This document shows positions 1 to 38,880 of a stretch of DNA of 43,235 nt, piece after piece. The DNA is from a virus. Its lineage: Duplodnaviria > Heunggongvirae > Uroviricota > Caudoviricetes. A program made the position numbers and the translations under genes. The notes beneath the pieces were generated by a model. The model was not told the origin of the DNA. It was given only the letters and a program-made list of their open reading frames with translations, and ran no database searches. The stretch lies in IMG/VR virus record IMGVR_UViG_2645727669_000018; one strand, written 5' to 3'. Numbering within the stretch: position 1 is the first letter of the stretch; every line of letters starts with the position of its first letter.

Positions 1-1209
1 ATGTCGGTTTTTCATAACTGGCTGCTTGATATCGCAAGCGGGAATTACTTTATCTACATCAAACGCCTTTCTGCAAACGACACAGGCGCAACAGGTGGCC
101 ATCAGGTCGGACTTTATATCCCCTCAAATATCGTTGAAAAGCTTTTTCCATCTATCAATCATACTCGCGAACTGAACCCTTCAGTCTTCCTTACTGCGCA
201 TGTATCATCCCATGATTGCCCTGATACCCAAGCACGCGCAATTTATTACAACAACCGTTATTTTGGTAAGACCCGAAACGAAAAAAGAATTACGCGCTGG
301 GGGAGAGGAAGTCCATTACAGAACCCTGAAAATACAGGAGCCCTCACAATTCTTGCTTTCAGGTTAAACGAACAGAACACTGACTGTTCCGAGGTAGATA
401 TATGGGTCTGCGTCAATCCCGATGAAGAGGATATCATCGAGTCTGCTATTGGCGAAATCATACCTGGAACCCTAATTTCCGGCCCTGCCGGACAAATTTT
501 GGGCGGATTGTCTCTTCAGCAAACTCCAGTAAATCATAAATATGTTATTCCTGAAGACTGGAAGAAGCGTTTTCCTTCTGGAAACGAAATTATTCAATAT
601 GCTGCTGGCCATTATGCTAAAAACTCCAAGGATCCAGATGAGCAACTGATTGACCGTCGGCGTGTCGAGTATGATATTTTTCTACTCGTCGAGGAATTAC
701 ATGTTCTTGATATTATTAAGAAAGGATTCGATTCTGTAGATGAGTTTATTGCATTAGCCAACTCTGTCAGTAATCGACGTAAATCAAGGGCAGGTAAATC
801 ACTTGAACTTCACCTAGAGAAGCTTTTTATCGAGCACGGACTACGGCATTTCTCCACTCAGGCAGTTACTGAAGGTAATAAAAAACCAGATTTCCTGTTT
901 CCTTCAGCAGAGGCATATCATAACGTTGAATTTCCTGTAGAAAACTTACGTATGCTGGCAGTAAAGACCACCTGCAAAGATCGCTGGCGTCAGATACTGA
1001 ATGAAGCAGATAAAATCCATCAGGTACATTTATTTACGCTGCAAGAAGGTGTTTCTTCAGCACAATACCGGGAAATGAAAGATGCGGGTGTCAGACTCGT
1101 TGTACCATCAACTTTACATAAAAAATACCCAGAAGCAGTTAGAGAAGAATTAATAACGCTCGGAGCATTCATTACTGAGCTGATAGAACTTTACGCTGAA
1201 CTATCATAG
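1..1209 (+). CDS. ecoRIIR: Type IIE restriction endonuclease, EcoRII-like (CCWGG-type)
   Basis: 402-aa ORF beginning at window base 1; sequence recognised from memory as very close to EcoRII along its whole length (N-terminal effector domain plus C-terminal catalytic domain); convergent with a Dcm-type cytosine methyltransferase as in the EcoRII system. Not searched. Confidence 0.8.
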   Translation: MSVFHNWLLDIASGNYFIYIKRLSANDTGATGGHQVGLYIPSNIVEKLFPSINHTRELNPSVFLTAHVSSHDCPDTQARAIYYNNRYFGKTRNEKRITRWGRGSPLQNPENTGALTILAFRLNEQNTDCSEVDIWVCVNPDEEDIIESAIGEIIPGTLISGPAGQILGGLSLQQTPVNHKYVIPEDWKKRFPSGNEIIQYAAGHYAKNSKDPDEQLIDRRRVEYDIFLLVEELHVLDIIKKGFDSVDEFIALANSVSNRRKSRAGKSLELHLEKLFIEHGLRHFSTQAVTEGNKKPDFLFPSAEAYHNVEFPVENLRMLAVKTTCKDRWRQILNEADKIHQVHLFTLQEGVSSAQYREMKDAGVRLVVPSTLHKKYPEAVREELITLGAFITELIELYAELS

Positions 1210-1214
1210 GCTGA

Positions 1215-1237
1215 CTCCCGGCTTAAAAGGCCGGGAG
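1215..1237. terminator. Stem-loop between convergent R and M genes (possible bidirectional terminator)
   Basis: 8-bp inverted repeat ctcccggc/gccgggag with 7-nt loop in the 34-bp gap between the two stop codons; no clear T-tract. Confidence 0.35.
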
Positions 1238-1243
1238 GTGTTC

Positions 1244-2677
1244 TCAAGGCTGCCCAGTCTTACCAGCATCAGCAGAAACAGCTTTGAGGATATAGGGTTC
1301 CAGAAGTCTGGCAACGGCTTCAAATACTGGCACCACAACGGAGTTACCGAACTGCCGATATGACTGAGTATCTGAAACCGGAATACGGAATGGTTTCCCT
1401 CCAGGTTTTTCAAACCCCATAAGGCGTGCGCACTCTCGGGGAGTCAGCCTGCGTGGTCGACGAGCCTGGTTACTCTCATTCATAAAGTCAGCCTCTCCCG
1501 TTGCCATATCCCAACCACGATCAATAAGAATTTCTGATCCGTCTTTGTGATATCTGGCAGAAAGTGTGCGTGCAATGCTTTCCTTATTCTCAGGATTGAC
1601 CAACCCAAAGCCAAAACCATTCCCCTTGGCTGCATGCTTTTTGGCGTAGTTATAAAGGTACTCCCATAGTTTTGGCGTAAGTATATATTTACTGTCGACT
1701 ACAGGCTCCAGCAATTCACCAAATGATGGGCGGTGTTCCGGATAAAAACGACTGATATCACGCAAGGTAAACCCCTTGTGAATATTCAGATCTCGTCTAA
1801 ATCCGACCAGAACAATGCGTTCACGATGCTGAGGCAAAAAATGCTTCCCATCGATAATCTTTGGATCGTTTTTTCCCATTTCTGCAGCATCGGCAACTTC
1901 GTAGCCCAGCTCGTCAAGGGTCTCCATAATGACTTTGAAAGTTTTACCCTTATCATGGCTCTTCAGATTTTTGACATTTTCCAGCACAAAAATTGCCGGT
2001 TTTTTTGCTCGTATAATACGTGCCACGTCAAAAAAAAGTGTTCCTTGTGCTTCACATTCAAAACCATGCGCACGACCAAGTGAGTTTTTCTTACTAACAC
2101 CAGCAAGGCTAAATGGCTGGCACGGGAACCCCGCAAGAAGCACATCATGATCCGGCACATGCTCATCAATATATGCATAAGCATCCGTTTCCAATACATC
2201 GGTTTTATCACTCAGCGTGACTTCCCGAATATCGAGATTGAATTTATGCACCTGTTCATCGTTAAACCAGTTGGCCTTGTATGTACGCACAGCATCTTTA
2301 TTCCATTCACTGGTAAAAACACACTGGCCTCCAATGGCCTCAAAACCTTTCCGTATCCCTCCAATTCCAGCAAATAAGTCAATGAAGCGGAAAGCATATT
2401 CCGGATGGTTTGCAGGTGGTTCTGGTAGCATCTTACGCAGAAGAGACTCTTCTACTGAAGTCAACGATTTTGGTAAACACTTGCCATTAATCCAGCGGTT
2501 GATGGTTTCACGGCTCCACTCATTTTTTCCGACTTTTCTCAGTAATTCAGCCACATACTTCTGATCATAGATTTCCAGCACTTTCTCGATAAGCTTTTTA
2601 TCATTTTCCTGTCGCAGCTTTTCTTCCGCCTCGGCTTCCTTCAGCAGATGCTGTGCCAACACTTCAAATTCAGACAT
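1244..2677 (-). CDS. ecoRIIM: DNA (cytosine-5)-methyltransferase, M.EcoRII/Dcm-like
   Basis: C5-MTase motifs in translation: [10 protein letters not shown] (motif I), GFPCQPFS (catalytic Cys, motif IV), FVLENV (motif VI), QFGNSV (motif X). Start moved from ORF-track 2719 to ATG 2677, which has GGAGG 5 nt upstream and gives 477 aa. Confidence 0.9.
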
Positions 2678-2984
2678 AATTCCTCCAAGGGGTCTAATGG
2701 GTGAAACTCTATCACTCATTCAACCCAGAAGGAAATGTTTTATCTGGATATTTAAACAGTGACTACAACGTAATCTAGCACTGGTGATGCTTTGTTAGGC
2801 ATAGAGAATCATTCTATATACGACTAATGACAGAAAAACAGCAGACAAGTAGTTTGTTCATAAATTAACGCATACTACGTGCCTACGGTTTTCGAGACCG
2901 GTCCAATCATCAAACGAAACATAAAATTAGCTCACATTATGAGGAAAAGTATCTTTTTTGTACTATGTAAATTCAAAGGCTTAG

Positions 2985-3854
<870 letters not shown>

Positions 3855-3911
3855 GTCTTTAAGTGATAAGCATAAACCGCAGCACGATCTTGCATACGAC
3901 GTGCTACGGTT

Positions 3912-4466
3912 TCATTTATCTCCGACCGGAAACTTCTTATACAGTGTCGATATACCAACATCATAGATGATCGCCACCTTCTGGCGAGGAACGCCTGATG
4001 CAATTAATCGCCCGGCCTGCGCCCATTGTTCTGGTGTAAGTTTGGGACGACGTCCACCAATTCGTCCCTGTGCGCGAGCAGCTTCCAGTCCAGCTTTTGT
4101 TCGTTCAACAATCAGTTCTCGTTCCATTTCAGCCAGGGCACCCATCACATGAAAGAAAAAACGCCCCATCGGTGTGCTGGTATCAATAGCATCCGTCAGG
4201 CTGCGAAAATTAACGCCACGTTCGCGCAACTCCTCAACCAGAATGACCAGATGCCGCATACTACGCCCTAGCCGATCCAGCTTCCAGACAACCAGAGTGT
4301 CACCTGCCGATAATGTCCTGAGCAGTTTTTTCAATCCCGGCCTTTCGGACTTTGTACCGCTTATCTTGTCTTCAAAAATCAGCTCGCATCCTGCACAGTT
4401 CAGCGCATTACGTTGTAGATCTGTGTTCTGGTCATTTGTTGACACACGTACATAGCCAATAAGCAT
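3912..4466 (-). CDS. pin: Serine DNA invertase, Pin/Gin/Hin/Cin family
   Basis: MLIGYVRVSTNDQ...WKLDRLGRS serine-recombinase catalytic motifs and C-terminal HTH; 184 aa from ATG 4466 with GGGAG-type SD upstream; adjacent to an invertible tail-fibre segment. Confidence 0.9.
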   Translation of the reverse strand: MLIGYVRVSTNDQNTDLQRNALNCAGCELIFEDKISGTKSERPGLKKLLRTLSAGDTLVVWKLDRLGRSMRHLVILVEELRERGVNFRSLTDAIDTSTPMGRFFFHVMGALAEMERELIVERTKAGLEAARAQGRIGGRRPKLTPEQWAQAGRLIASGVPRQKVAIIYDVGISTLYKKFPVGDK

Positions 4467-4520
4467 GGTAGATCTCCCTGACAAAAGCAGGAATGATGCC
4501 ATTTGCTCGTTATTTCTGCA

Positions 4521-4546
4521 TTTTCATAAACGTTGGTTTGGGAGAA
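4521..4546. repeat. hix/gix-like 26-bp recombination site (invertase-proximal boundary)
   Basis: Reverse complement reads ttctcccaaaccaacgtttatgaaaa, resembling hixL TTCTTGAAAACCAAGGTTTTTGATAA (from memory); central AA dinucleotide; lies in a 31-bp perfect inverted repeat (4533-4563 vs 6035-6065). Confidence 0.65.
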
Positions 4547-4900
4547 GCGGCAAAACGGAATGTAGGTAACGAGCAAAACCAAATTCCGGATATGGCGGCG
4601 TTTGCCAGTTCACTTTCATCAACGGGGTTTCAAAAACTCCCTTCAGGTCTGATTATTCAGTGGGGTATTGTCAGTGGAGCATCAAACTATACGGTGACTT
4701 ACCCGGTAACATTCCCAAATCGTTCACTTGCGCTGTTGGCTGTGCCACATACAACGTCGGTGGCTGGTATATCTGCAATGGGCATAGCGAACTGTTCTGA
4801 TATCAGCAAATCACAGTTCTATATAATTGTTGGCGGTATATCTCAGGGAGAAATTGTCAAATATGAAAGGTCCTGTTTTTGGGTAGCAATCGGTGTATAG
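4534..4900 (+). other. Alternative tail-fibre C-terminal coding segment (currently unlinked orientation)
   Basis: Plus-strand ORF encodes [23 protein letters not shown]..., sharing the first 10 residues with the expressed fibre ([23 protein letters not shown]) and then diverging; lacks its own N-terminus. Confidence 0.65.
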
Positions 4901-5695: not shown

Positions 5696-6354
5696 AATTT
5701 CCCAATTCCTAAAATATGGACATCATCAGCCTTACGGGCATTCCAGGTGACAATTACATCGGTAGAGTGACGATTAACTGAGATTGCGTATGCTTCGTTA
5801 GTCGAGCCAGAAACTTTTGTGGCAAACACAGCAAACAGGACACCAAATGACTGGGGCCATTTATAGCCTGACAGCTGATAATTACCATTATTCAGTGTTA
5901 CAGCTTTGGCTGCTGCACTTGATGGAATCGTCAGCCACTGGAGTATCAACCCTCCTGGCAAAAGTTGTTTTCCGTAATAATCCCTCACCCCACTAAATGA
6001 AACCATGTCCGGTATCTGATTTTCCCCTGTGCCCACATTCCGTTTTGCCGCTTCTCCCAAACCAAGGTTTTCGAGAGCCGTTTTCACCGTGCCATCCGAT
6101 TTGATATCGCTAAACGGATTCTTGCGGCTTAACAGCAGCGCACGAAGCGCGGTAAGCAGCTGGTCATGCCGCCCCTTCTCCAGGCTGGCACCGGATGCCT
6201 CCACCACGCTGCAGAGTTCTTCCTGCAACATATCAAAGTAGTCATCATCAAGATCGGTGGCAGGTGTGCCGGTCTGGGGGTTACCACGGGTAAAACCGTT
6301 TTTACCCGCGCCGAACTTATCCTTCTGCGCGGTTTTCGTGTCTATACGATGCAT
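5692..6354 (-). CDS. Side tail-fibre protein (constant N-terminus plus invertible C-terminus)
   Basis: 220-aa ORF spanning the recombination site at 6064/6065; N-terminal about 100 aa outside the segment, C-terminal about 120 aa inside; resembles e14/Mu-type short fibres (from memory). Confidence 0.75.
6052..6077. repeat. hix/gix-like 26-bp recombination site (fibre-proximal boundary)
   Basis: ttctcccaaaccaaggttttcgagag; core AAACCAAGGTTTT matches the hix consensus core (from memory); inverted relative to the site at 4521-4546. Confidence 0.65.
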
Positions 6355-11416: not shown

Positions 11417-11947
11417 TTAGCGAGTCAGAAACAACGAATCTTTATACTTTTGCTGTTGTTCATTTAAATACTTAGCTGTTTCATCGCTGGCAAATGGAAA
11501 TATTACCGTATTTTTAGGCATGGTAATTTCTTTTTTGTCCAGCGTCAGAGTAAACATAGGAACATACTGAGCAGAGTAACGCACCGCAGAAACGAGCTCT
11601 AGTTTAGACTCTTCAATAACACTTAAATTATCCAGGCTAACTTTCTCTTCATCTTTTTTCTTTGACGCATTTAAAGTTTTTATTACTTTATTTAATTTCT
11701 CCTGAAAATCCTCCTTAAAGTTTTCAGGATTGCCGTCGACAACAAGAATCTGTTCACCCTGATTATCTGGAAAAATAATCTTTGCACTTATCAATTTATT
11801 TTCTTTATAAACATCACCAAGTTTTATGGCTCCTCCAGATAACTGAATAATATGTTCATCTTTAAAGGAGATGTTGCCAGAGATTATGAGAGATGAAAAA
11901 ATAGCCGCTGCTCCAAGAATTACACTTGCTGTGATATAGCCTTTCAT
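11417..11947 (-). CDS. Hypothetical exported/membrane-anchored protein (moron inside tail operon)
   Basis: 176 aa, visibly AT-rich, Lys/Asn-rich; N-terminal hydrophobic segment (VILGAAAIFSSLIISG) suggests signal peptide or anchor; own candidate promoter and terminator. Confidence 0.6.
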   Translation of the reverse strand: MKGYITASVILGAAAIFSSLIISGNISFKDEHIIQLSGGAIKLGDVYKENKLISAKIIFPDNQGEQILVVDGNPENFKEDFQEKLNKVIKTLNASKKKDEEKVSLDNLSVIEESKLELVSAVRYSAQYVPMFTLTLDKKEITMPKNTVIFPFASDETAKYLNEQQQKYKDSLFLTR

Positions 11948-16857: not shown

Positions 16858-17360
16858 CTGTGTCGTCGCTCCGGCTTCAGTGATTTACGCAATTCCCGCG
16901 CCAGAAAATAGCGTGTCCAGCTGCGGTTCTTTTCAAGAGTTTCCACCATGAAGTTATTACGTGGAGCCAGTCGCCAGCCGCTGCCACCGGATGCGCCACG
17001 ATGATGACTACGACGACGTTTTGCTCCTCCCCGGACACCAAAAAACAGAAACGCCGGATAGAAGTCACCAGAGATCATCCGGTTCCCCTTCCCGTTGCGC
17101 TGGTTAGGGGCAATGCGTGTCATAAAACCGGCTCGCTTTTTACTGGCTCTCGGCACCATATAACCAATCGAACGAGCCAGGCGTCCGGTCTGATAACCGG
17201 GGTTTTCACCCGGTGCCGACCGCGCACGGCGCATCACCAGCCGACGGGCATCACGCATATGACGCTGCCCAATCGTGACAAACGCCCGCCGGACACGGGC
17301 GCGGTTAAAGCGCATCTCGGCGGGCTGCTGAACATCAACGTGAAAAAAGGGAGTCGCCAT
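16854..17360 (-). CDS. Putative virion morphogenesis / head-tail joining protein
   Basis: 168 aa, Arg-rich; in the head-tail junction block. Confidence 0.45.
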   Translation of the reverse strand: MATPFFHVDVQQPAEMRFNRARVRRAFVTIGQRHMRDARRLVMRRARSAPGENPGYQTGRLARSIGYMVPRASKKRAGFMTRIAPNQRNGKGNRMISGDFYPAFLFFGVRGGAKRRRSHHRGASGGSGWRLAPRNNFMVETLEKNRSWTRYFLARELRKSLKPERRHR

Positions 17361-24379: not shown

Positions 24380-25162
24380 TTATTTTTTCTTCTTATTTAA
24401 CTTATCTAAATTGACGGGATCTTTCCCTGTGGCAGCTAAACACCAAAAAGAATAACTCTTTTGCATGACATAGGTTCTAATTCTCTCTAATGTTTCATTA
24501 TATTTTTTCTCAACAACCTGTATCGCATGTTCAAATAAATTAATCATATCAACATGCTCGTCCTCGACACCAATCATGCTCAGTTGTTTTCTATCTGTCA
24601 CTGCTTGATAAAATGTTTTCCCATTTTTCCTTATTAGTAACAATGAAGTTTCTGCTGACTCATAGTCTTGGTTGCCGCTATGTGCTGCAAAATTATGCCT
24701 GTAGTTAATAATACAGTCATGCAACCCAAAATATTCAGAATCAAGCCAATCACGCTCCATCTTTAACTTTCTCCCTTTAGCTTCAGAGAAAGCTTTACCA
24801 TAAAACGTTAGGCTTGCCACAAATAACGCTCTAATTTCACTTGATAAATCTAGATCAAGTATATTCCCGTATAACTTGCCATCTGTCCTTAATTCGTTTC
24901 TCCCTGCCAGTTCATTAGCTATTTGGTACCACTCTTTAGCACTTTTTAAGTCCCTATGAATTAGGGACAGTGAAGATGCTCTATCGGCAATACGCCCACT
25001 CAATTTTATGCGATCTACAATTTCATTATTGAATGTATAAACCGCTTTAAATTCCCCCGTTTCGGAATCAATATAATATTCAACATCTAACCCTTCATAT
25101 GATTCACACCCGGGACCTTCTAATTTTTTTCTTTTCATATAGAATATCCATATACGTTTCAA
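24380..25162 (-). CDS. Hypothetical protein (AT-rich moron between Rz and HNH)
   Basis: 260-aa ORF (TTG at 25162; first ATG at 25138 gives 252 aa); Lys/Asn/Tyr-rich, visibly AT-rich; no recognisable motifs; own terminator. Confidence 0.6.
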   Translation of the reverse strand: MKRIWIFYMKRKKLEGPGCESYEGLDVEYYIDSETGEFKAVYTFNNEIVDRIKLSGRIADRASSLSLIHRDLKSAKEWYQIANELAGRNELRTDGKLYGNILDLDLSSEIRALFVASLTFYGKAFSEAKGRKLKMERDWLDSEYFGLHDCIINYRHNFAAHSGNQDYESAETSLLLIRKNGKTFYQAVTDRKQLSMIGVEDEHVDMINLFEHAIQVVEKKYNETLERIRTYVMQKSYSFWCLAATGKDPVNLDKLNKKKK

Positions 25163-26785: not shown

Positions 26786-27727
26786 ATGAGTACAGAAAAT
26801 AAGAATAAAACCAGGCGAGTGAGAGTTGGTTTTTTCACTGGTAATGGAAGCAAAAAAGATGGCACATCTGCTGCAAAACTAGCCTTTGAGCAAATGACCA
26901 CAGCAGATACTGTAACTTTTCCAATAACTTACACAACAGACACCCCAAGTCGAGGGTTAAAGTTAGTTATTCTTCAAAAAGATACCACACTGCAATGTTA
27001 CTTTGGTTACGTATCGTGGAGAAGGGAATGCCTACTACCGTTCATCGAGGATGCTACAGGTAGTGAGAGAACAATTCCTTTAAATGATAAAGATTCTGTA
27101 GTTGAAAGAACATATTTTATCTATTACTACGAAACGGACTTATTAGCTATGACCCTCAACCATATAGGGCCCAAAGTAAATGATCTGGCATTCATTTTGT
27201 ATAACAAAACTGATTTAAAAAGCGTCACTTTTGAAGCCATTTGGAAACAAGAGAGCATGAAGGAACTGCTTGAGGACGGAAATATCCTACGTAGTTTCGA
27301 TCTTATAGTTGCTGCTCCAAGAAACTTTAACAAAGCTAATTATAAGATTAAAAACCCTTTAGCTAATGAAATTATTGACATGGTTGTTGGTATGGGCGGG
27401 TCGCATCTAAGATTAAATATGCGAGGTCGGATTCGCCCGAAAAAACAAGGGTTTAACTATCTAAAAACTTCTGTCACCGATGCTATTAAGGAACTACTTG
27501 AACTTTTTCCAAAAGGTTCTGGAGGTCTAAAAATTAAAAAAATTGATGTAACAGAGCCATCCAATAGAACGCCCAAAAGTCTACTTGACCAAGTATTGGT
27601 CAGTACAAAGACAATCATTGTCAAAAGCGGTTATCCATCCGATTCTGATATCAGAACGGCGATGATATCTGCTAAAATTGATAACGCGAACTATCTTGCA
27701 CAGTATGAGCTCGCTAGCAGAGACTAA
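26786..27727 (+). CDS. Hypothetical protein, first gene of a two-gene Q-S cassette
   Basis: 313 aa, AT-rich, on the strand opposite to the late genes; no recognisable motifs; stop 21 nt before the partner gene start. Confidence 0.7.
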   Translation: MSTENKNKTRRVRVGFFTGNGSKKDGTSAAKLAFEQMTTADTVTFPITYTTDTPSRGLKLVILQKDTTLQCYFGYVSWRRECLLPFIEDATGSERTIPLNDKDSVVERTYFIYYYETDLLAMTLNHIGPKVNDLAFILYNKTDLKSVTFEAIWKQESMKELLEDGNILRSFDLIVAAPRNFNKANYKIKNPLANEIIDMVVGMGGSHLRLNMRGRIRPKKQGFNYLKTSVTDAIKELLELFPKGSGGLKIKKIDVTEPSNRTPKSLLDQVLVSTKTIIVKSGYPSDSDIRTAMISAKIDNANYLAQYELASRD

Positions 27728-27748
27728 TAACCAAGCATGGAGGACACA

Positions 27749-28198
27749 ATGAGAGAATTAGCCACTTTTCTCTGGAAATGCGTCCTCTGGATTCTGTTGA
27801 CCTATGCAGCGACAAAACTGTTTAAACCGATGAAGCATGCTGACGTACTCACAACAGCGGGGGTGCTCTCGACTATATCAGGCATCCTGTTTGGTTTTGT
27901 TCTGGCTGCAATATCTATATTTAGTAGTGCAAACAGCGATAAGGAAGGAGCAATTAATGCCCTTAAGCAAAACAACGTGTTACCAACTCTGGTAAATAGA
28001 TTACTTTCAACAGGGTTAACTCTCATCGTCGCATGTATATTTCCATTGATAGCGATGTTTCTACCTGATGATGTTATTGTTGCGGGCAAACCTATTGATT
28101 TCCTGTTCATACTGTTAGGCTTATCCTCCCTTATAATTTCGCTATATACCTTCGGAAGGTGTTGGTTAGTGTTACGAAAAATCTTCCCCCACTTGTGA
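27749..28198 (+). CDS. Small polytopic membrane protein, second gene of Q-S cassette
   Basis: 149 aa from ATG 27749 (GGAGG 5 nt upstream; ORF track starts at 27737); about four hydrophobic helices. Confidence 0.7.
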   Translation: MRELATFLWKCVLWILLTYAATKLFKPMKHADVLTTAGVLSTISGILFGFVLAAISIFSSANSDKEGAINALKQNNVLPTLVNRLLSTGLTLIVACIFPLIAMFLPDDVIVAGKPIDFLFILLGLSSLIISLYTFGRCWLVLRKIFPHL

Positions 28199-29613: not shown

Positions 29614-30411
29614 TCAATGAACGGTATCGAGCAGCTTTAACAGCTCAGAGAATCGGGATTCGAAGAAATGCGGCTGCGTCTCGCGCGGATTTGCGGGACT
29701 GGTGATGTTCTTGCCGAACATGCAGCCTTTCGCTGTCAGCGACCAGAATTTTTTGATGTTGTTAATCGCGGTACGGCTGTATCGTTCGCGCTGCTCGACG
29801 ATCCCCAGCTTCACCATCTGGTGATATGCCTGATTAGCCGTCAGGCGGATACCATACTGTTTCAGCAGTGCACTCAGTGACAGCGTAGGGCGACTTGAGC
29901 CATCGTGTGCATCAGCAGGAGCATCAATGGCATAGCGCGGTGCCAGATTCGGTAAGCCAACAGCCTCCTGAAGTTTCTGACAGGCTCCAAGCACTGAAGA
30001 GTTAGACAGATTTAACTCCCGGCGCATAAAGTCCAGCAGAATCACGCCAGCCTGCATCTTGTCAGCAGCCTGTCCGGATAATTTTTCAGGTGCGCTGGTT
30101 ACCATGTCGAAAGTACGGATCACCTTCAGATGGAATGACGGGCTGATCCACATTGCATAGGCATACACCAGTTCTTTGCAGACATACGTCCCCTGGTTAT
30201 TTCCACCACGAATAACGTTAACTGGCTCTATATTGACCGAGTTGCAAATCTGCAACTCGCTTATTAAACGTTCAGTTTGCTCATTGCGGAGCCAGAATGC
30301 AGGCTTATGCTTATCCAGAGAACCGGCAGCCCTGTGCAGATCGTTCAGGCTGTAACGCCCATAAGCATCACGACGAACTTCAATACCATCAATGACCATC
30401 AGATTATTCAT
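29614..30411 (-). CDS. KilA-N domain protein
   Basis: N-terminal MVIDGIEVRRDAYGRYSLNDLHRAAG...FWLRNEQT pattern typical of KilA-N domains. Confidence 0.65.
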   Translation of the reverse strand: MNNLMVIDGIEVRRDAYGRYSLNDLHRAAGSLDKHKPAFWLRNEQTERLISELQICNSVNIEPVNVIRGGNNQGTYVCKELVYAYAMWISPSFHLKVIRTFDMVTSAPEKLSGQAADKMQAGVILLDFMRRELNLSNSSVLGACQKLQEAVGLPNLAPRYAIDAPADAHDGSSRPTLSLSALLKQYGIRLTANQAYHQMVKLGIVEQRERYSRTAINNIKKFWSLTAKGCMFGKNITSPANPRETQPHFFESRFSELLKLLDTVH

Positions 30412-30430
30412 ACTTCGTTTCTCCTCTTAA

Positions 30431-30820
30431 TCAGGCGGCTGCACCCGCCGGTTTCTCGTACTTACTGATAGCGATCTCGACCTTCCCTTCCGGGATAACC
30501 GGTCCCCACTCCACCAGCATTCTTTTCACCTGACTGTCGTCTTCCCACACACCCGCGTGGGTCAGGGCGTCAAACAGCGCCTTGTTATAGTTGTCCAGAT
30601 CGCGGATCCGGTTATCCGGAGGAAACAACACGATCTCCACTGAAGCAGGTGCCGACGTTGGTTTCGGCAGACGACGTAACTGCTCAACTATTGCTGCGCA
30701 CGCCGCGCTCTGGAATTTTCGCCCCGCCGCGCTTATCAGGCTCTTACCAGCAAACGCCCCTTTGTTGGGGTGTCGCCAGTACGTGTTCACGCTGGGCGGA
30801 AAAGGCAGGATCAGCTTCAT
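30431..30820 (-). CDS. rusA: Holliday junction resolvase RusA
   Basis: 129 aa; LPFPPSVN..YWR N-terminus and DLDNY.KA.FDALT acidic catalytic motif. Confidence 0.8.
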   Translation of the reverse strand: MKLILPFPPSVNTYWRHPNKGAFAGKSLISAAGRKFQSAACAAIVEQLRRLPKPTSAPASVEIVLFPPDNRIRDLDNYNKALFDALTHAGVWEDDSQVKRMLVEWGPVIPEGKVEIAISKYEKPAGAAA

Positions 30821-31143
30821 GCTTTCAGGCCTCTCTCATGTAACCAGTGGGTTGCACGCAGCCTTGCGTTTTCCTCACCGGCAAGCAGTGAGCGGATAAT
30901 CCCGACCGCCTCGCTGTCGTCGTCCTTCACCGCGGTATGAAGCGTTATCCCCCGGGCCACGCCACGCTTTATCGTGATGACGCCTTTTTTCTCCAGTGCG
31001 CGAAGATGCTCCACCGCTGCATTCACTGAACGGTATCCCAGCATGGTTGCCACCTCCTGATTGGTTGGCGGGAAGCCACGTTCTTTCTGGTAAGAAATCA
31101 GCATATCCAGCACCTGCTGCTGGCATTGAGTTAATGTCGTCAT
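30817..31143 (-). CDS. LexA-like winged-helix DNA-binding protein
   Basis: 108 aa; N-terminal LTQCQQQVLDMLISYQKERGFPPTNQEVATMLGYRSVNAAVEHLRALEKKGVI resembles the LexA DNA-binding domain; no peptidase domain. Confidence 0.55.
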   Translation of the reverse strand: MTTLTQCQQQVLDMLISYQKERGFPPTNQEVATMLGYRSVNAAVEHLRALEKKGVITIKRGVARGITLHTAVKDDDSEAVGIIRSLLAGEENARLRATHWLHERGLKA

Positions 31144-31793
31144 GCCGCCATCTCCCTGACCAGTTTTTCTGCCTGCTGGCGAACCTGCGCCAGAAACGCC
31201 TCACCACATGCCTCAAGTTCATCGCGCCCGATGTAGCTGATTGCCGGTCCCTTCCAGGTCTTGTCGAAAACAGCAATAGCACCAGCGAAGAAAGCGCCTG
31301 TCGGCACCTGCTTCTCATCTTTCGGGATAAACCAGGCAGGCAGTTCAAAACCAATACGCCCGCGAATAAAAGCAATATGATCTGCATCTTCCGGCCACCA
31401 CACTTCGCTGGTGGCAGCTTTGATCAGGAAAACATAGCGCCCGCCTTTATCACGCATGGCACTGGCATGTTTCATGATGTAACGCATGCCGGTGATGTAT
31501 TGCCCCTCATGCTGACTGGCGCGGCTGTATGGGGGATTACCAAAGGCAGCACCTTTAAGCTCCGCAAGACGTTCTGACCAGTCATGCGCCAGCGCATTGT
31601 CTTCCGCCGTGTAATACGCGGTACATTTGGCGTTATCACCGTCAGTAAACAGATCCAGAACAAACGGGCCAAACAGAGTGTTAATTCCCCAGAAAATGTT
31701 ATCCGGCGTGCGCCACTGATCGCCCACTTCCTTCAGTTCATGGGCTGGTTTGTTCCGTAGTTCCACCAGCGCCTGGCAATATTTATTACTCAT
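31140..31793 (-). CDS. Phage-type DNA N6-adenine methyltransferase (orphan)
   Basis: NPPY catalytic motif (FGNPPYSR); 217 aa from ATG 31793, which overlaps the upstream stop (TAATG). Confidence 0.8.
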   Translation of the reverse strand: MSNKYCQALVELRNKPAHELKEVGDQWRTPDNIFWGINTLFGPFVLDLFTDGDNAKCTAYYTAEDNALAHDWSERLAELKGAAFGNPPYSRASQHEGQYITGMRYIMKHASAMRDKGGRYVFLIKAATSEVWWPEDADHIAFIRGRIGFELPAWFIPKDEKQVPTGAFFAGAIAVFDKTWKGPAISYIGRDELEACGEAFLAQVRQQAEKLVREMAA

Positions 31794-32287
31794 TAAGCCC
31801 CCACGTAATTCCCTGACAGATACCACTCATCACTCGATACAGCGCGCTTGCTGCTTTTCCGTAAACACTGCTCACGACGCGCCAGAAAATTGTTTCGTTC
31901 TGGCTGGGAGTGGCTTTCACGGAATGCCGCCATCCACACCGTTGCAGCACGACGGTATAAGCCCCTGGACTCCAGTTCTTCCGCCTGGCGGGTCAGGCAC
32001 AAAATCTCCCGCGGGTCGTTAGTGCCGACATAGAAATTGCGCACAGGTCTGGTTTCACGAACTGGTTGCGGTTCCGCCTCCTGCGCTCTCTCAGTCAGGC
32101 GCGGGAAATGTCTGCGTGTATCCCCTTCACAACGGTGAGCCACACGACCACTCTGACGTAACTTGCTTGCTGACTGCAGAACGCGCTGCCGTGAGTAACC
32201 TGCAAAAGCATCCGCAATGTCTCCGGAAGTACACCCCGGATGGGCTTCAATGTATTTCTGAACTTCATTCAAAAGACTCATGATCAC
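31793..32287 (-). CDS. Hypothetical protein (possible small regulator)
   Basis: 164 aa, Arg-rich; ATGA overlap with O-like gene stop; weak recollection of PerC/ANR-like regulators. Confidence 0.45.
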   Translation of the reverse strand: MIMSLLNEVQKYIEAHPGCTSGDIADAFAGYSRQRVLQSASKLRQSGRVAHRCEGDTRRHFPRLTERAQEAEPQPVRETRPVRNFYVGTNDPREILCLTRQAEELESRGLYRRAATVWMAAFRESHSQPERNNFLARREQCLRKSSKRAVSSDEWYLSGNYVGA

Positions 32288-33225
32288 CCCCTGAATCCTG
32301 CCGGGATCTGGCTGTAGTCCACGTTGTCGTAACTGGCTTTGAAGTACGGGTCTTCGCGTTTTTCGGTGTACGTGCTGACGGACGGCGATAAGCGCAGGGA
32401 AAGCTCATCCCATTTTTCCCGCAGCTTCGACGGGCTGAGCACGTTACGGCACCAGAACGGATCGCGGCTGACGCGGCTGTACATCTCGCAGATTTGTTTG
32501 TGAGTACGACCATCCTGCACACACATCAGGCGAATTTCGTTTGCCCAGGCTGTCCAGTTCGGTTCTTTGGGACGAACCACCTCGCCGTCACATTCGGCGG
32601 CCTGCTCGTACAGGGCGATGATTTTTTTCCAGAGCCACTGTGCGCAGGTCAAATCATCCTGCGTTCCCCACTGGCGCTTTTTAGGGCTGAATACAACCGC
32701 ATCAGGATGGCGAGTTAAAAACTCCTGTTCAGCCGTCTGCGTGTCCGGTTGCGAAGCGTCCGGACGAGAAGTTTTTTTATCTGACGGATCATGTTTTGAT
32801 TTTACTGACGGATCCCCGCCAGATTCTGACGGGTGAAAACCCGCTTTTTTGCCAGATTTCGACGCATCAAATTTTGACGGGTCAGATTTTGATGCGTCAG
32901 ATTTTGACGGGTCAGAATCTGACAATTGAGAAAATGCCGCTGCCTGAAGCTTCGCAACGTTAAGCTGATAAACATTCGACGCATTGCGGTTACCCTGGCG
33001 ACGCGCCTTACGCGTTAACCAGCCTTCTGCTTCCAGCCGTGCGATAGCCGTTCTGACGGTACTCATCCCCGCGCCAATCTGACGGGCAATGGTTTCAATT
33101 GATGGCCAGCACACACCTTCGTCATTACTGAAATCAGCCAGGCGGGCCATAATTGCCACGCTGGATAATTTCATGCCTGACGCAGCGCAACCATCCCATA
33201 CATAGCCGGTTAATTTAGTGCTCAT
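32284..33225 (-). CDS. Replication initiator (lambda O-like, N-terminal HTH)
   Basis: 313 aa; N-terminal winged-helix region, central repetitive linker (DPSKSDASKSDPSKFDASKS) encoded by tandem DNA repeats, distinct C-terminal domain; position after cro/CII-like genes. Confidence 0.7.
   Translation of the reverse strand: MSTKLTGYVWDGCAASGMKLSSVAIMARLADFSNDEGVCWPSIETIARQIGAGMSTVRTAIARLEAEGWLTRKARRQGNRNASNVYQLNVAKLQAAAFSQLSDSDPSKSDASKSDPSKFDASKSGKKAGFHPSESGGDPSVKSKHDPSDKKTSRPDASQPDTQTAEQEFLTRHPDAVVFSPKKRQWGTQDDLTCAQWLWKKIIALYEQAAECDGEVVRPKEPNWTAWANEIRLMCVQDGRTHKQICEMYSRVSRDPFWCRNVLSPSKLREKWDELSLRLSPSVSTYTEKREDPYFKASYDNVDYSQIPAGFRG
32780..32930. repeat. Iteron-like tandem repeats (candidate replication origin) inside the initiator gene
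   Basis: About 8 copies of (a)tttTGACGG(g/a)TC-like units spaced 16-18 bp, read directly from the sequence; analogous to ori-lambda iterons within O. Confidence 0.6.
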
Positions 33226-33573
33226 GACCGACCTCTATTTCCCTGAATTTACGACGAAACTGTTCGAGCGGACTGAAGCATTCATGCTCATAGCCTTCGC
33301 GGAGGTAGATAACCCGTTGTGTTTCCGGCTCCCAACGAATGACTCTGACGGGCACTCCGTAGTGATCTTTGAACCAGCGGTTAACTTGTCGCAAAGGACT
33401 GTCTCCTTCTGCCGGTTGAAATCACCCACAGCCCACTCTGCAAAGCTGTGGGTTACAATTTCCCTGTCACCTGGTACATTTACTGCATAGCAATACTCCA
33501 CCTTCGCTTTTCCACCCGGTACAGGAAGCGCAATCAGTTGCGAGCGACGGTAGTGTGTTGTTAAACTGTTCAT
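33215..33573 (-). pseudogene. Hypothetical gene with apparent frameshift
   Basis: Frame A starts ATG 33573 (ATGA-coupled to upstream gene); a second frame, open from 33421, reads ...[44 protein letters not shown]... and ends TAA 33215-33217, coupled to the O-like start; span 359 nt is not a multiple of 3. Confidence 0.4.
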
Positions 33574-34121
33574 GCGTTAGTTTCTCCACAGTCACGACAC
33601 GCCACGGCGCCCGGAGCTGCACACTCGCGGGCGTCATTACTTTCTGAAATGCAAAAAATTTTGTAGACCAGTGCTGCATGCTCCTGCAGCTTCGAAATTG
33701 AGAGGTACAGCTCGTCGTTAATTGCTGTCTTCTCATGCGGTTCCACTACACCGTCTTCAATTGCTGAACGAATCTGTTTTGAATAACTGCCGATCTGTTC
33801 AATGACCTCCAGCAGGCGTTGGTTGATATCGGCGTTGTCCACATCCTCGACATCAGGAAGAGACACAAAGACGCCATTTGCAGACTGCGCCACAGCGTCA
33901 GCAATGAAGTGAGTTCCACCAGCACGTTGCAAAATCATTGCCCATCCCAGCGGGAAAATCTGATCGCCATCTACACGAAGGCGGTTAAATAATGCGTTCT
34001 CTGTTACATCCAGCCAGTCAGCAGCTTCAGCGTACCCCCCCGGCAACGCTGCGATAGTTTTTCTGACAGCTTTCACGTACCACTCAGGCTGTTTTTCTAC
34101 TTTCCAGTGATGCTTACCCAC
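33570..34121 (-). CDS. Putative CII-like early regulatory protein
   Basis: 183 aa directly downstream of cro, overlapping it by 8 nt; weak recollection of phage CII (CP76-type) family. Confidence 0.45.
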
Positions 34122-34374
34122 GGTTCACCTCCTGTTCCTGTGGTTTAAACCCATTCTGGTTTTGGCTAGATTGAAAACGTGCCGGATAAAGAATCTGCAT
34201 TTCGCTGACTTCACCCTTAAAAAAATTGGCTAAACGTTCTGCAAGCTCGATAGATGGAATCTGCTCCAGCCTCTCAATACGACTCAACGTCGCTGGATTG
34301 ACTTGAACACCCGCAGCAACATGCTGCAAAGTGAAACCATGCGCCTTACGCACATTTCGTAATGGTGATTGCAT
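34114..34374 (-). CDS. cro: Cro-like HTH repressor
   Basis: 86 aa HTH protein (HGFTLQHVAAGVQVNPATLSRIE) divergent from cI; GGAGG SD 5 nt upstream. Confidence 0.8.
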   Translation of the reverse strand: MQSPLRNVRKAHGFTLQHVAAGVQVNPATLSRIERLEQIPSIELAERLANFFKGEVSEMQILYPARFQSSQNQNGFKPQEQEVNRG

Positions 34375-34471
34375 ATGCCCTCCAAATATTGCGCGTTATG
34401 CATGTTATTTCACGCAATTATTTTGCGCAAGTTGATTTGCTTATCACGCAATAAAGAAATGTAATAAACGC
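34375..34471. promoter_or_regulatory. Immunity control region (divergent promoters and operators)
   Basis: 97-bp cI-cro gap with at least three TTGCGC/GCGCAA-type dyad motifs (attgcgcgtta, cacgcaattattttgcgcaa, tcacgcaataaa); candidate PR TTGCGC-17-TAACAT on minus strand. Confidence 0.6.
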
Positions 34472-35164
34472 ATGAACATAGGAAACCGAGTCAGACAACT
34501 TCGCCAAGCGAAGAACATGAAAATCGCCGATCTCGCTGAAGCGATAGGAGTAGATGCGGCGAACATCTCGCGCTTAGAAACGGGTAAGCAAAAACAATTT
34601 ACCGAACAAACACTGAGTAATATTGCCAAGAGCTTAGGTGTTGATATTGCTGATCTCTTTACCTCTGCCCACAAAAGTAATACTGTATATAAAAACAGTA
34701 ATAATGAGGATGTTGCGCAGGTGAAGGATGTGTTCCGTATTGAAATGCTGGATATCAGTGCCAGTGCGGGAAATGGCCTTATCCAGGGCGGTGATGTCAT
34801 TGATGTGATTCATGCCATCGAATACAGAACTGATAATGCTGTATCAATGTTCGGCGGACGACCAGCCAATCACATCAAAGTTATCAACGTTCGTGGGGAC
34901 AGTATGTGTCCAACCATTGAGCCAGGAGATCTCATCTTCGTTGATGTCAGCATCAATCAGTTTGATGGTGATGGTATATATGTCTTTGGTTTTGATGATA
35001 AAATATACGTTAAAAGACTTCAAATGATTCCTGACAAACTGCTGGTGATTTCTGATAACCAGATTTACCGTGAATGGGGAATTACTAGCGAAAACGAACA
35101 CCGATTCATGGTCTTTGGAAAGGTCTTAATCAGTCAGTCGCAAACCCTTAAGAGACATAATTAA
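34472..35164 (+). CDS. cI: cI-type repressor (HTH plus S24 LexA-like peptidase domain)
   Basis: N-terminal HTH; C-terminal GDSMCPTIEPGDLIFVD with catalytic Ser and downstream VKRL Lys (Ser-Lys dyad). Confidence 0.9.
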   Translation: MNIGNRVRQLRQAKNMKIADLAEAIGVDAANISRLETGKQKQFTEQTLSNIAKSLGVDIADLFTSAHKSNTVYKNSNNEDVAQVKDVFRIEMLDISASAGNGLIQGGDVIDVIHAIEYRTDNAVSMFGGRPANHIKVINVRGDSMCPTIEPGDLIFVDVSINQFDGDGIYVFGFDDKIYVKRLQMIPDKLLVISDNQIYREWGITSENEHRFMVFGKVLISQSQTLKRHN

Positions 35165-35183
35165 CCTCAATATCCCATCCATC

Positions 35184-35208
35184 GGCCACCGAAAGGTGGC
35201 TTTTTATT
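35184..35208 (+). terminator. Rho-independent terminator after cI
   Basis: ggccacc-gaaa-ggtggc followed by ttttt, 20 nt after the cI stop. Confidence 0.65.
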
Positions 35209-35218
35209 ACCTATAAAT

Positions 35219-35255
35219 TTGCATATCTCGCAAATATCACTTGCATATCTCGCAA
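35219..35255. repeat. Two 15-bp direct repeats TTGCATATCTCGCAA (candidate operator/PL-type sites)
   Basis: Identical copies at 35219-35233 and 35241-35255; each an imperfect dyad TTGC-N7-GCAA; at the start of the leftward operon. Confidence 0.45.
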
Positions 35256-35462
35256 TTTAATTTTATCTTTTGTTCCAGACCAACTACAGGATTACAACAA
35301 AATCTGGTTGCAACACGGTGCATGTGTCGTAAGCAGTCAGTAAATGTCAAAAACGAACAGGCAGGACGCCCACGAAGTAGCCGCCTGGGGCATATGAAGT
35401 CCAGGATGATTCGTTGAGTCATGTTGTGCCACTAGGCACTCATGTTAAAGCAGGTGTATGAA

Positions 35463-35738
35463 ATGAAAGTCCAGATTTTAAACAATAACTGTGAAGTCGT
35501 TTGGTCATACGACATAGCCGCCCCTGTAGATCAGAGCGGCGATAGCTGGACCAATGGGAAACATCAGATTATGGCTGGAGTTGTGTTCTCTTTACGCCGT
35601 GCTTTGGAACAGGCTGAAGTATTTCCATCAGACCCTGAATGGAAATGGCCTTTTTCTATTTGTCCAAATTCGGAGAGCACATTTCAGAAAATTGGTCAGA
35701 AAGTCGCACTCGAAGAGCATCAGCCAACTGTTTCCTGA
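35463..35738 (+). CDS. Hypothetical protein (first gene of leftward operon)
   Basis: 91 aa from ATG 35463 with AGGTG SD; overlaps a convergent minus-strand ORF. Confidence 0.4.
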   Translation: MKVQILNNNCEVVWSYDIAAPVDQSGDSWTNGKHQIMAGVVFSLRRALEQAEVFPSDPEWKWPFSICPNSESTFQKIGQKVALEEHQPTVS

Positions 35739-35901
35739 TTTTTTCAGGTAACTCGTCGGCATCGCAGAAACAACAACGCTCGATCATGTTGAAAGCCGAT
35801 TCGTAGAACTGTTTCTGCTGAGTGTCGCTGAGACAGGAAAAGAGCGACGTTACGATGATTTTATTAATTGCATTATCAAGTTCTTTTTCATCAAAAGTCA
35901 T
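35656..35901 (-). CDS. Hypothetical protein (antisense to leftward operon)
   Basis: 81 aa; AGGAA SD 5 nt upstream; contains CCFC motif; convergent overlap of 83 nt with 35463-35738. Confidence 0.3.
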   Translation of the reverse strand: MTFDEKELDNAINKIIVTSLFSCLSDTQQKQFYESAFNMIERCCFCDADELPEKIRKQLADALRVRLSDQFSEMCSPNLDK

Positions 35902-36156
35902 TTGATTTTCCTTTTATGTATACGGGCTTAAAAGGATACCACCGAGCCTGAAGTGGTGAAAAGACAGGCACATAACAGCTAAGTATTTTCAACCAGAGAG
36001 AATCCTTAGCGTTGTGGTGAATGCGGCTCAGCGCACGCGGGTTAAGGTTGAGGCTGACAGTCGACCTTCTGTGGATACCCACCCGTCTGGTGTGCAACCT
36101 TCGCCAGGCACCGGGAGGCACCCGGCACCACAACTTTATGCTGTGTGTAGTCCTGG

Positions 36157-36289
36157 CGGTACCAGTTTGTACCCTTGCTTCCGGCTGGTACCGTCCTTTT
36201 TACAAAACAGAGAAGAGCATCACCGGACGACGGGCTCATAACCCAATCCATCCGGGCGGCTGCCACCGCAGGTGTTCTTCTCTGTTTTG
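36157..36289. other. Highly structured GC-rich non-coding region (two long inverted repeats)
   Basis: 9-bp IR cggtaccag/ctggtaccg (36157-36193) and 14-bp perfect IR caaaacagagaaga/tcttctctgttttg (36203-36216 / 36276-36289); local ORFs are Arg/Pro/Cys-rich and look non-coding. Confidence 0.45.
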
Positions 36290-36338
36290 TGGAGAAACTA
36301 ATCGGCCTTGCAGGGTCGATATGATGAGGAGCAGCAAA

Positions 36339-36701
36339 ATGGCTAGCGAACGCAGTACTGATGTGCAGGCATTTATCGGGGAGCTGGACGGCGGCGTATT
36401 TGAAACCAAAATCGGCGCAGTTCTCAGTGAAGTCGCTTCCGGTGTGATGAACACGAAAACCAAAGGTAAGGTCTCACTCAACCTAGAAATCGAACCATTT
36501 GATGAGAACCGTGTGAAAATCAAACACAAACTCTCATATGTTCGCCCGACTAACCGCGGGAAAATTTCCGAAGAAGACACCACCGAAACGCCGATGTATG
36601 TCAATCGCGGTGGTCGCCTGACTATTCTGCAGGAAGACCAGGGACAATTACTGACTCTTGCCGGTGAACCTGACGGAAAACTCCGCGCAGCAGGTCATTA
36701 A
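36339..36701 (+). CDS. Hypothetical protein
   Basis: 120 aa from ATG 36339 (GAGGAG SD); the longer ORF-track version 36021-36701 is rejected because its N-terminal 106 codons lie in the structured GC-rich region. Confidence 0.55.
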   Translation: MASERSTDVQAFIGELDGGVFETKIGAVLSEVASGVMNTKTKGKVSLNLEIEPFDENRVKIKHKLSYVRPTNRGKISEEDTTETPMYVNRGGRLTILQEDQGQLLTLAGEPDGKLRAAGH

Positions 36702-36766
36702 TATCGTTATTAATTAACTGATTATTTATCTCATCACTGAATATCTTTATATAGTGAGGACTTATT

Positions 36767-37591
36767 ATGTCTCAGAACTTAGACGCAACCGCAATTAATC
36801 AAATCCATGCCCTTATTTCTGCTCAGGGTGTTAATGAAATTATCAGTAAGATTGGTGCCGATGCTGTGGCATTGCCTGAGAATTTCCGCATTCATGATCT
36901 GGAAAAATTTAATTTAAATCGTTTCCGTTTCCGTGGTGCGCTTTCCACTGCCAGCATCGATGACTTTACCCGTTATTCTAAAGATCTTGCAGATGAAGGC
37001 ACCCGCTGCTTTATCGATGCCGATAATATGCGTGCCGTCAGTGTGCTTAACCTGGGTACTATTGATGAACCAGGTCACGCAGATAACACCGCCACTCTCA
37101 AACTGAAAAAGACAGCACCGTTCTCTGCTCTGTTGTCTGTTAATGGCGAGCGTAACTCCCAGAAATCACTGGCAGAATGGATTGAAGACTGGGCCGACTA
37201 CCTTGTGGGCTTTGATGCTAATGGTGACACCATTCAGGCAACAAAAGCGGCTGCGGCGGTCCGTAAAATCACGATTGAAGCAAACCAGACTGCTGATTTT
37301 GAAGATAATGACTTCAGCGGCAAACGCTCCCTGATGGAGTCTGTCGAAGCGAAGACCAAAGACATTATGCCAGTGGCATTTGAGTTTAAATGCGTTCCGT
37401 TTGAAGGTCTGAAAGAACGTCCGTTTAAATTACGCCTCAGCATTATCACTGGCGATCGTCCGGTACTGGTTCTGCGCATTATTCAGCTGGAAGCGGTGCA
37501 GGAAGATATGGCTAACGAATTTCGTGATCTGCTTGTTGAGAAATTCAAGGACAGCAAAGTAGAAACCTTTATTGGGACTTTCACCGCCTGA
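36767..37591 (+). CDS. YfdQ-like protein (DUF2303)
   Basis: 274 aa; recalled similarity to CPS-53 prophage YfdQ; followed by a hairpin terminator. Confidence 0.6.
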
Positions 37592-37603
37592 TTTCATTAC
37601 TGC

Positions 37604-37625
37604 AAATGCCCCTGCGGGGGCATTT
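37604..37625 (+). terminator. Stem-loop after YfdQ-like gene
   Basis: aaatgcccc-tgcg-ggggcattt 9-bp stem; weak T-tract. Confidence 0.4.
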
Positions 37626-38821: not shown

Positions 38822-38880
38822 TTATCAGGACTGGAATTTGATATTACTGCCCGTGTGCAGCGGGCTAAGTGGAGAAACAT

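Follow-up and report, generated by a model that had tools for sequence, protein, structure and literature searches.

The EcoRII restriction–modification (R-M) system was described on IncN-type plasmids, where a two-domain endonuclease (R.EcoRII, PDB 1NA6/3HQF/3HQG) is paired with M.EcoRII, a 477-aa methylase with an N-terminal domain. In E. coli, Dcm belongs to the same NCBIfam subfamily as this methylase and shares with it the predicted target CCWGG; it is a solitary chromosomal enzyme whose gene is overlapped by vsr. A precedent for an EcoRII-type module in a temperate phage, also with predicted CCWGG specificity, is the P2-like Burkholderia phage KL3, in which the genes are co-oriented, vsr is included and the endonuclease is an EcoRII-C domain protein (pfam09019 only, with no N-terminal effector domain reported; PMC3091744). 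The e14 prophage, integrated in icd, carries another restriction function, the type IV HNH enzyme McrA directed against methylated cytosine, and its gene lies between pinE and the end of the element. CMoRE, also called PD-T4-3 (PDB 9U75, from E. coli O157:H7), is a single-gene type IV modification-dependent GIY-YIG nuclease which cuts DNA containing hydroxymethyl- or glucosyl-hydroxymethyl-cytosine and ignores 5-methylcytosine (PMC12923530). Our literature searches found no specific description of a prophage-borne EcoRII in a phage of the SfV/e14 family.

The stretch of DNA analysed here (the window, 43,235 nucleotides) very probably carries such a system: an intact type IIE R-M cassette of the EcoRII family with predicted CCWGG specificity, which is cargo of an SfV/SfII/e14-family phage and forms a two-layer defence with CMoRE. 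The endonuclease gene R occupies positions 1–1209 on the plus strand and the methylase gene M positions 1244–2677 on the minus strand, in the convergent arrangement given in the preliminary description.

The 402-aa R protein possesses an N-terminal effector-DNA-binding domain of the B3-like pseudobarrel type (Pfam EcoRII-N, PF09217, residues 16–163, E=4e-61) and a C-terminal PD-(D/E)XK catalytic domain (EcoRII-C, PF09019, residues 227–391, E=2e-71), and was recognized by PADLOC as REase_II with 772 bits. It aligned end-to-end and gap-free with the crystallised EcoRII (PDB 1na6, E=1e-242) with an identity of 86.3%. All 26 catalytic and DNA-recognition residues listed in PMC2770665 were kept. 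The four active-site residues Glu271, Asp299, Lys324 and Glu337 were identical, as were Lys328-Asp329-Arg330, which read CC:GG, the pocket of the flipped base (R222, E225, Y226, F229, R265, A266) and the base contacts of the N-domain (N28, H36, Q37, Y85, R94, E96, R98). No lesion was found in R, which is full length. By homology, R is thus confirmed as a full-length type IIE endonuclease of the EcoRII family, and the assignment to this family, and not to one of another specificity, was borne out. The enzyme is predicted to cleave CC^WGG only once a second site is bound and to be inhibited when the inner cytosine carries a C5 methyl group, the CCWGG specificity of the pair being deduced from the residues conserved at 86% identity. 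The dN/dS ratio relative to the plasmid allele, with which the DNA is approximately 80% identical, was about 0.04 for R and 0.04 in each of its two domains; among four independent relatives the protein was 99.5–100% identical. The window begins exactly at the first base of the R ATG, so that the promoter, the ribosome-binding site and any alternative start lie outside it, and the promoter was inspected in relatives only. There, a further start is present two codons upstream (ATG TAT ATG); the annotated start is two codons shorter than that of plasmid EcoRII.

The M protein (477 aa) is a C5 cytosine methyltransferase with an N-terminal DNA_meth_N domain (PF18284, E=7e-27) followed by a DNA_methylase domain (PF00145) whose match spans positions 1–320 of the 324 of the profile. 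It scored 927 bits against NCBIfam PRK10458 (NF007772, “DNA cytosine methylase”), for a cut-off of 710. The canonical motifs announced for it were readable as FAGIGG (I), PCQPFS (IV), ENV (VI), QHRER (VIII) and GNSV (X), and the GGAGG Shine–Dalgarno sequence was found at 2686–2682, 4 nt ahead of the ATG at 2677. M showed 91.4% identity to a plasmid EcoRII-type methylase and 66.3% to Dcm of K-12, which suggests that it methylates the inner cytosine of CCWGG. Unlike dcm, the gene has a partner endonuclease, and its cassette contains no vsr. Its dN/dS relative to the plasmid allele was about 0.03, and the protein was 99.8–100% identical among the four independent relatives. These data agree with the earlier statement that both genes look intact.

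The similarity to the plasmid system extends to the layout. The convergent order is the same, the published catalytic and recognition residues are all identical, and the leaders are conserved over approximately 65 bp before R and 85 bp before M, the latter corresponding to the leader and promoter region of M at 2678–2760 (minus strand), which is part of the R-M cassette. The two stop codons are 34 nt apart, and the spacer contains a GC-rich hairpin (CTCCCGGC-loop-GCCGGGAG, positions 1215–1237) of which the stem is conserved in the plasmid allele and the loop differs. This hairpin is probably a bidirectional terminator. It was not called by a simple terminator scan, as it is devoid of a T-run; in simple promoter and terminator scans over positions 1–4600, hits were no more numerous than in shuffled sequence and were not used. 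The junction between the cassette and the phage backbone lies in the segment 2761–2882, since relatives free of the R-M pair (L009, L010 and L011) align only from 2883 rightwards. The KL3 module differs from the present pair by its co-oriented genes, its vsr and its P2-like phage.

Between M and the pin-type serine DNA invertase (3912–4466, minus strand; Pfam Resolvase and HTH_7; named pinE in relatives) lies a gene encoding a 257-aa protein (3081–3854, plus strand) which corresponds to CMoRE. It matched PADLOC PD-T4-3 over positions 1–255 of 256 (E=3e-139) and PDB 9u75 over residues 1–257 (E=2e-171), with 252 of 257 residues identical in the alignment (approximately 98%) and no notable difference. 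The GIYxY-YIG motif retains its tyrosines Y17, Y19 and Y31, and the full-length match includes the C-terminal modification-sensing domain. The preliminary description placed the R-M pair next to Pin; pin is indeed at the same end, but the CMoRE gene intervenes. The comparison made there with e14 stood: the backbone is the same (ymfQ, tfa, pinE) and mcrA occupies the same slot, from pin to the attachment site. Instead of an HNH enzyme, this slot contains here the GIY-YIG type IV nuclease and the type II R-M pair, and the phage is integrated in ssrA, not in icd. CMoRE is the closer counterpart of mcrA, with the R-M pair lying outboard of it. On the outboard side of CMoRE, an AraC-type regulator takes the place of the R-M pair in O157:H7 and H10407. 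CMoRE and the R-M pair make up, as judged from their sequences, a small defence island in the cargo slot of the phage. Five other candidate cargo ORFs (11417–11947, 24380–25162, 26786–27727, 27737–28198 and 40262–41041) gave no PADLOC, Pfam or NCBIfam match.

The structural genes share 97% nucleotide identity with those of SfII, SfI, SfIV and SfV, which identifies the phage, by similarity, as a temperate myophage of the SfV/SfII/e14 family and the R-M pair as accessory (“moron”) cargo at its ssrA-proximal end. SfV-type phages carry O-antigen conversion genes in the slot matching the position of the R-M pair and CMoRE. About 260 records of complete E. coli genomes, roughly 5% of the total, contained the R-M allele. 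EcoRII had been introduced as classically plasmid-borne, an accurate account of its history; yet among complete E. coli genomes the prophage-type allele, which is chromosomal, was found at 268 chromosomal places and the plasmid allele at 153 plasmid places.

The preliminary description left open whether the pair lies inside the prophage boundary and guessed at an att core derived from ssrA. Such a core exists. The terminal 25 nt of ssrA are repeated exactly at 41082–41106 (plus strand), beyond the tyrosine integrase gene (39048–40220, plus strand; Pfam Arm-DNA-bind_2 and Phage_integrase), at the opposite end of the phage from the R-M pair. This copy is the only match in the window, with 0 expected by chance, and marks attR, the right prophage boundary. 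As the window contains no tRNA or tmRNA gene and does not include the left junction, the latter was taken from relatives. In RM13322, R12 and VTB96816v, the end of ssrA lies 234 bp ahead of the R ATG, and this 3′ end matches the attR core of the window. A repeat of approximately 200 bp is common to both prophage ends in R12, and 709 E. coli genomes have an empty, uninterrupted ssrA site. In a relative integrated at thrW (1916D18), the same cassette lies approximately 650 bp inside the thrW att repeat, and in a circular phage-sized record of 43,680 bp (NZ_CP081704.1) it is found between int-dinI and the tail genes, although such 43.7-kb circles may have arisen during assembly and not be true episomes. 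Taken together, these comparisons place the R-M pair inside the prophage, between attL and attR. Among the sequenced phages of INPHARED, no record carried R-M or CMoRE, only the pin part being matched, and no virion-derived genome with the cassette was found. A 30-kb “plasmid” (NZ_CP104634.1) was rejected as evidence of mobility, as it contains ecp and pao, which are chromosomal genes, and seems to be a wrongly labelled piece of chromosome; a 379-aa ORF to the left of its cassette, considered as an integrase, showed no Pfam domain. In the window, attR is followed by a CP4-57-like element.

We propose that M, which is presumably expressed in the lysogen, would modify host and prophage DNA at the inner cytosine of CCWGG. 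As reported for M.EcoRII, its promoter is probably under autoregulatory control by the N-terminal domain of the protein. The endonuclease would be autoinhibited by its N-terminal effector domain and would cut only while binding at least two unmethylated CCWGG sites, with cleavage of incoming unmethylated DNA as the result. DNA with hydroxymethyl- or glucosyl-hydroxymethyl-cytosine, which evades EcoRII, would be cut by CMoRE, and since CMoRE ignores 5-methylcytosine, the two activities would be compatible and complementary. The lysogen would thereby gain with the phage a two-layer, cytosine-centred defence island, predicted to be protective. Its value is likely limited by the host: dcm was present in 5368 of 5426 complete E. 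coli genomes (98.9%), and as Dcm methylates the same site, most coliphages grown in E. coli would be at least partly protected on arrival.

The prophage-borne EcoRII pair is a real but ordinary finding, defence cargo from a known enzyme family, and existing knowledge of the workings of EcoRII, Dcm and CMoRE is unchanged. A classic “plasmid” enzyme appears here as a diverged allele under strong purifying selection, carried by SfV/e14-family prophages. Through its pairing with CMoRE, one end of the phage may defend against cytosine DNA whether unmodified or hypermodified. The locus neatly illustrates how defences can be stacked in the cargo slot of a prophage, and also how a restriction system can reside in a host whose solitary methylase has the same specificity.

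Other readings of the locus were considered. There is a slim chance that the R-M and CMoRE block is a discrete mobile defence cassette, captured from an ssrA junction and moved from one SfV-family phage to another by recombination that is integrase-mediated or guided by att. The R-M pair is always accompanied by approximately 360 bp upstream, comprising an ssrA-like att core and a look-alike of the ssrA downstream sequence. A hairpin element overlapping the pin stop codon (3875–3914) has a second copy beyond the far side of the cassette in the thrW-integrated and circular relatives; in some relatives the block is bracketed by direct copies of this 41-nt hairpin, and homology ends inside the core. 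These features are what suggest a captured cassette, and the block would then bear its own recombination scar instead of being passively inherited cargo.

The preliminary description spoke of defence or addiction cargo. The defence part gained from the presence of CMoRE, a dedicated anti-phage nuclease, alongside the pair. It is improbable that the pair is mainly a selfish addiction module, in which the methylase would be diluted once the prophage is lost, leaving residual EcoRII to cut the chromosome, and the prophage would be stabilised. In favour of this, EcoRII is cited in PMC3424554 as a textbook case of post-segregational killing, the convergent arrangement has been preserved together with its own promoters, and the position of the cassette at the very end of the prophage would penalise deletion. 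Dcm, however, protects against exactly this post-segregational attack by EcoRII (PMC3424554), and with dcm in nearly every complete E. coli genome, the killing would be neutralised in nearly every host.

Defence by an active pair, as proposed above, also accounts better for the state of R than the supposition that in the lysogen R is not expressed or its product does not work, and that the methylase alone matters, for example in guarding phage DNA from hosts bearing EcoRII plasmids. Dcm does make the pair partly redundant, and phages often bear orphan methylases, the window itself encoding a Dam-type methylase at 31140–31826; yet a decaying gene would look different from R, with its full length, its complete set of functional residues, the low dN/dS in both domains and its near-identity in four relatives, and this supposition is therefore very unlikely. 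Least probable of all is a separate small island that entered ssrA in tandem with the phage, made up of the R-M pair and perhaps also CMoRE, with the prophage boundary between R-M/CMoRE and pin: tandem arrays at ssrA occur, as with the CP4-57-like element, and the recurrence in some relatives of the hairpin just past pin beyond the cassette, beside the ssrA-like core, can be read as old junctions, but the interval from ssrA to pin is free of integrase and other mobility genes, no second copy of the core that would separate the cargo from the phage was found in the window at up to three mismatches, the hairpin copy at 3875–3914 has GGTTTCA alone in common with the core, and the cassette travels with the phage both at thrW and in the circular record.

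The R gene (window 1-1209, plus strand) encoded an EcoRII-family endonuclease of 402 aa with the Pfam domains EcoRII-N and EcoRII-C. The protein aligned without gaps and over its full length with the crystallised EcoRII (PDB 1na6, E=1e-242, 86.3% identity), the 55 substitutions being scattered across both domains. Golovenko et al. (PMC2770665) described in EcoRII the active site (Glu271, Asp299, Lys324 and Glu337), the triad reading CC:GG (Lys328, Asp329 and Arg330), the pocket that receives the central base when it is flipped out (Arg222, Glu225, Tyr226, Phe229, Arg265 and Ala266) and the residues with which the N-terminal effector domain contacts bases and phosphates. At the positions listed in that work, 26 out of 26 functional residues were identical in the R protein. 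The dN/dS ratio was approximately 0.04 against the plasmid allele, approximately 80% identical, a qualitative value as dS was saturated. Identity reached 99.5-100% in four independent relatives. The window starts at the ATG of R, and the R promoter and an alternative start two codons upstream fall outside it.

The M gene (window 1244-2677, minus strand) encoded a C5 cytosine methyltransferase of 477 aa with the Pfam domains DNA_meth_N and C5 DNA_methylase. It scored 927 bits with the NCBIfam Dcm-subfamily model (cut-off 710), and shared 91.4% identity with an EcoRII-type methylase of plasmid origin, compared with 66.3% for the K-12 Dcm. The dN/dS ratio, again only qualitative owing to the saturation of dS, was approximately 0.03 against the same plasmid allele, and M was 99.8-100% identical in the four relatives. 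The two genes are convergent, with 34 nt between the stops spanning a GC-rich hairpin, the stem of which is conserved in the plasmid allele while the loop differs. The preliminary description had presented the pair as intact and EcoRII-like. Its open reading frame coordinates were exact, the GGAGG Shine-Dalgarno sequence that it assigned to M was present 4 nt upstream of the ATG, and both the integrity of R and the family membership were borne out. The system belongs to the EcoRII family by every testable feature, and from its sequence is predicted to be a functional type IIE system with CCWGG specificity.

Homology with the plasmid allele extended from approximately 65 bp upstream of R as far as window position 2760. 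In O157:H7, H10407 and WCHEC020031, in which an AraC-type regulator fills the position of the R-M pair, homology with the window began only at 2883. These limits delimit an R-M cassette of approximately 2.8 kb with its own leaders.

The leftmost 4.6 kb of the window were compared with 5426 complete E. coli genomes, and were covered over at least 80% of their length in 239 of them. In strains RM13322, R12 and VTB96816v, which carry related prophages, R started 234 bp past the 3' end of ssrA; VTB96816v was 100% identical to window 1-2700. The last 25 nt of ssrA were present as a single copy in the window, at 41082-41106 (none expected by chance), just past the integrase (39048-40220) and a hypothetical gene, and no further copy with up to three mismatches was found in the window. 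The ssrA-proximal att core anticipated by the preliminary description was thus located, with ssrA to the left of R in the relatives and the core recurring at the far end. R12 matched window 30000-41108 at 100% identity and has a single, clean insertion, the ends of which share a repeat of approximately 200 bp made of the core and a look-alike of the ssrA-downstream sequence, including the terminator. At the R12 attL (L006) and at 17108-17270 in the locus of another relative (L003), a phage copy, approximately 94% identical, of the approximately 170 bp natively following ssrA was visible, terminator included. Since the phage carries this copy after the core, integration restores the ssrA terminator and the att repeats measure approximately 200 bp. 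An 800-nt query joining ssrA to the right flank of R12 was used to search for empty sites, counting matches that spanned 80% or more of the query without a break. An empty ssrA site was found in 709 genomes, the best matches being 100% identical across all 800 nt.

In the related prophage of strain 1916D18, a thrW-type integrase adjoined tRNA-Thr at one end, and a 64-nt thrW repeat marked the opposite end. Approximately 650 bp inside this repeat was the R-M pair, with an ssrA-like core still before it. The circular record NZ_CP081704.1 (43,680 bp; a sister record has 43,671 bp) corresponded to a whole phage genome, with R, M and the GIY-YIG gene placed between int-dinI and the tail genes. The left ssrA flank, the far-end core, the empty site, the thrW relative and the circular record together place the R-M pair within the mobile unit. 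A prophage boundary between pin (3912-4466, minus strand) and the R-M genes is at odds with the flank, the core and both types of relatives, and was rejected.

The structural genes were 97% identical to those of Shigella phages SfII, SfI, SfIV and SfV and of Escherichia phage vB_EcoM-689R6, and the backbone genes ymfL, ymfQ, ymfR, tfaE and pinE were common with e14. The slot of mcrA in that cryptic prophage is the interval from pinE to the prophage end, in agreement with the preliminary description. The pair was said to be next to pin: it does lie at the same end of the prophage, but a CMoRE gene (3081-3854, plus strand) intervenes. CMoRE is the closer counterpart of mcrA here, the EcoRII pair being outboard of it. 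The gene encodes a GIY-YIG protein of 257 aa that matches the PADLOC model of the single-gene system PD-T4-3 along its entire length (E=3e-139) and is approximately 98% identical to PDB 9u75. Biochemical and structural work established CMoRE as a modification-dependent nuclease of type IV that degrades 5hmC and glucosyl-5hmC DNA, without binding or cutting 5mC or plain DNA (PMC12923530), and it protects native and heterologous hosts against T-even phages (bioRxiv 10.1101/2024.12.20.629700). It was the more widespread, in 839 of the 5426 genomes versus 263 records of the R-M pair at ≥99% identity. A 41-nt hairpin (3875-3914) overlapping the pin stop codon recurred beyond the cassette beside the ssrA-like core in the thrW-integrated and circular relatives (L002 11707-11747 and L004 19400-19440), thus bracketing the R-M and CMoRE block. 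The homology of the two copies ended at GGTTTCA, within the core. This duplication may be the scar of cassette capture, or may only be a shared terminator.

By analogy with the known enzymes, M would mark the inner C of CCWGG, and R, autoinhibited by its N-terminal domain until additional sites are bound, would cleave incoming unmethylated DNA with at least two sites. CMoRE would deal with phages escaping through cytosine hypermodification, while tolerating the 5mC produced by M.EcoRII and Dcm. As dcm was found in 5368 of the 5426 genomes, E. coli-derived phages and plasmids should be at least partly pre-methylated. Dcm gives only partial protection to lambda. The near-universality of dcm also speaks against a primarily addictive role; Dcm has been described as a shield of the genome from EcoRII post-segregational attack (PMC3424554). 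The phage-borne EcoRII-type module of Burkholderia phage KL3 is a precedent, but its enzyme was described as an EcoRII-C domain only, the N-terminal effector domain being unreported, and the module includes vsr (PMC3091744). The present prophage allele is routinely annotated in RefSeq, and no description of it was found in the literature.

A Dam-type N6-adenine methyltransferase (31140-31826, minus strand; PF05869, E=1e-45) constitutes a second DNA-modification function on the phage genome. In window 1-41106, 88 CCWGG sites were observed, fewer than the approximately 131 expected from a third-order Markov estimate on the window only. Two low-GC open reading frames of 313 and 153 aa (26786-28198, plus strand), between the holin and the Q antiterminator, had no Pfam, NCBIfam or PADLOC match. 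Relatives hold different genes there (serine protease, NYN-domain protein), which suggests a second slot for variable cargo. A low-GC frame of 176 aa (11417-11947, minus strand), between the DNA circularisation and tape measure genes, had no family match; it was annotated as an OB-fold protein in one relative and was absent from this place in L001 and L004, two relatives' loci. Between the integrase and attR, a frame of 259 aa (40262-41041, plus strand), likewise unmatched in Pfam, NCBIfam and PADLOC, may represent additional cargo at the opposite end of the prophage.

Inverted repeats of 68 nt, 84% complementary, at 4528-4595 and 6003-6070 flanked a segment of approximately 1.4 kb, both strands of which carry alternative tail-fibre C-termini and genes for tail-fibre assembly; this is the pin-invertible host-range segment. 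To the right of attR (window 41107-43235), another ssrA-type element similar to CP4-57 (87.5% identity to K-12) was represented by its left end, and forms with the prophage a tandem array at ssrA. An IS21-family element, with istB at 41434-42168 and istA running from 42213 to the end of the window, interrupted the intA gene of the CP4-57-like element after codon 19, at 41367.
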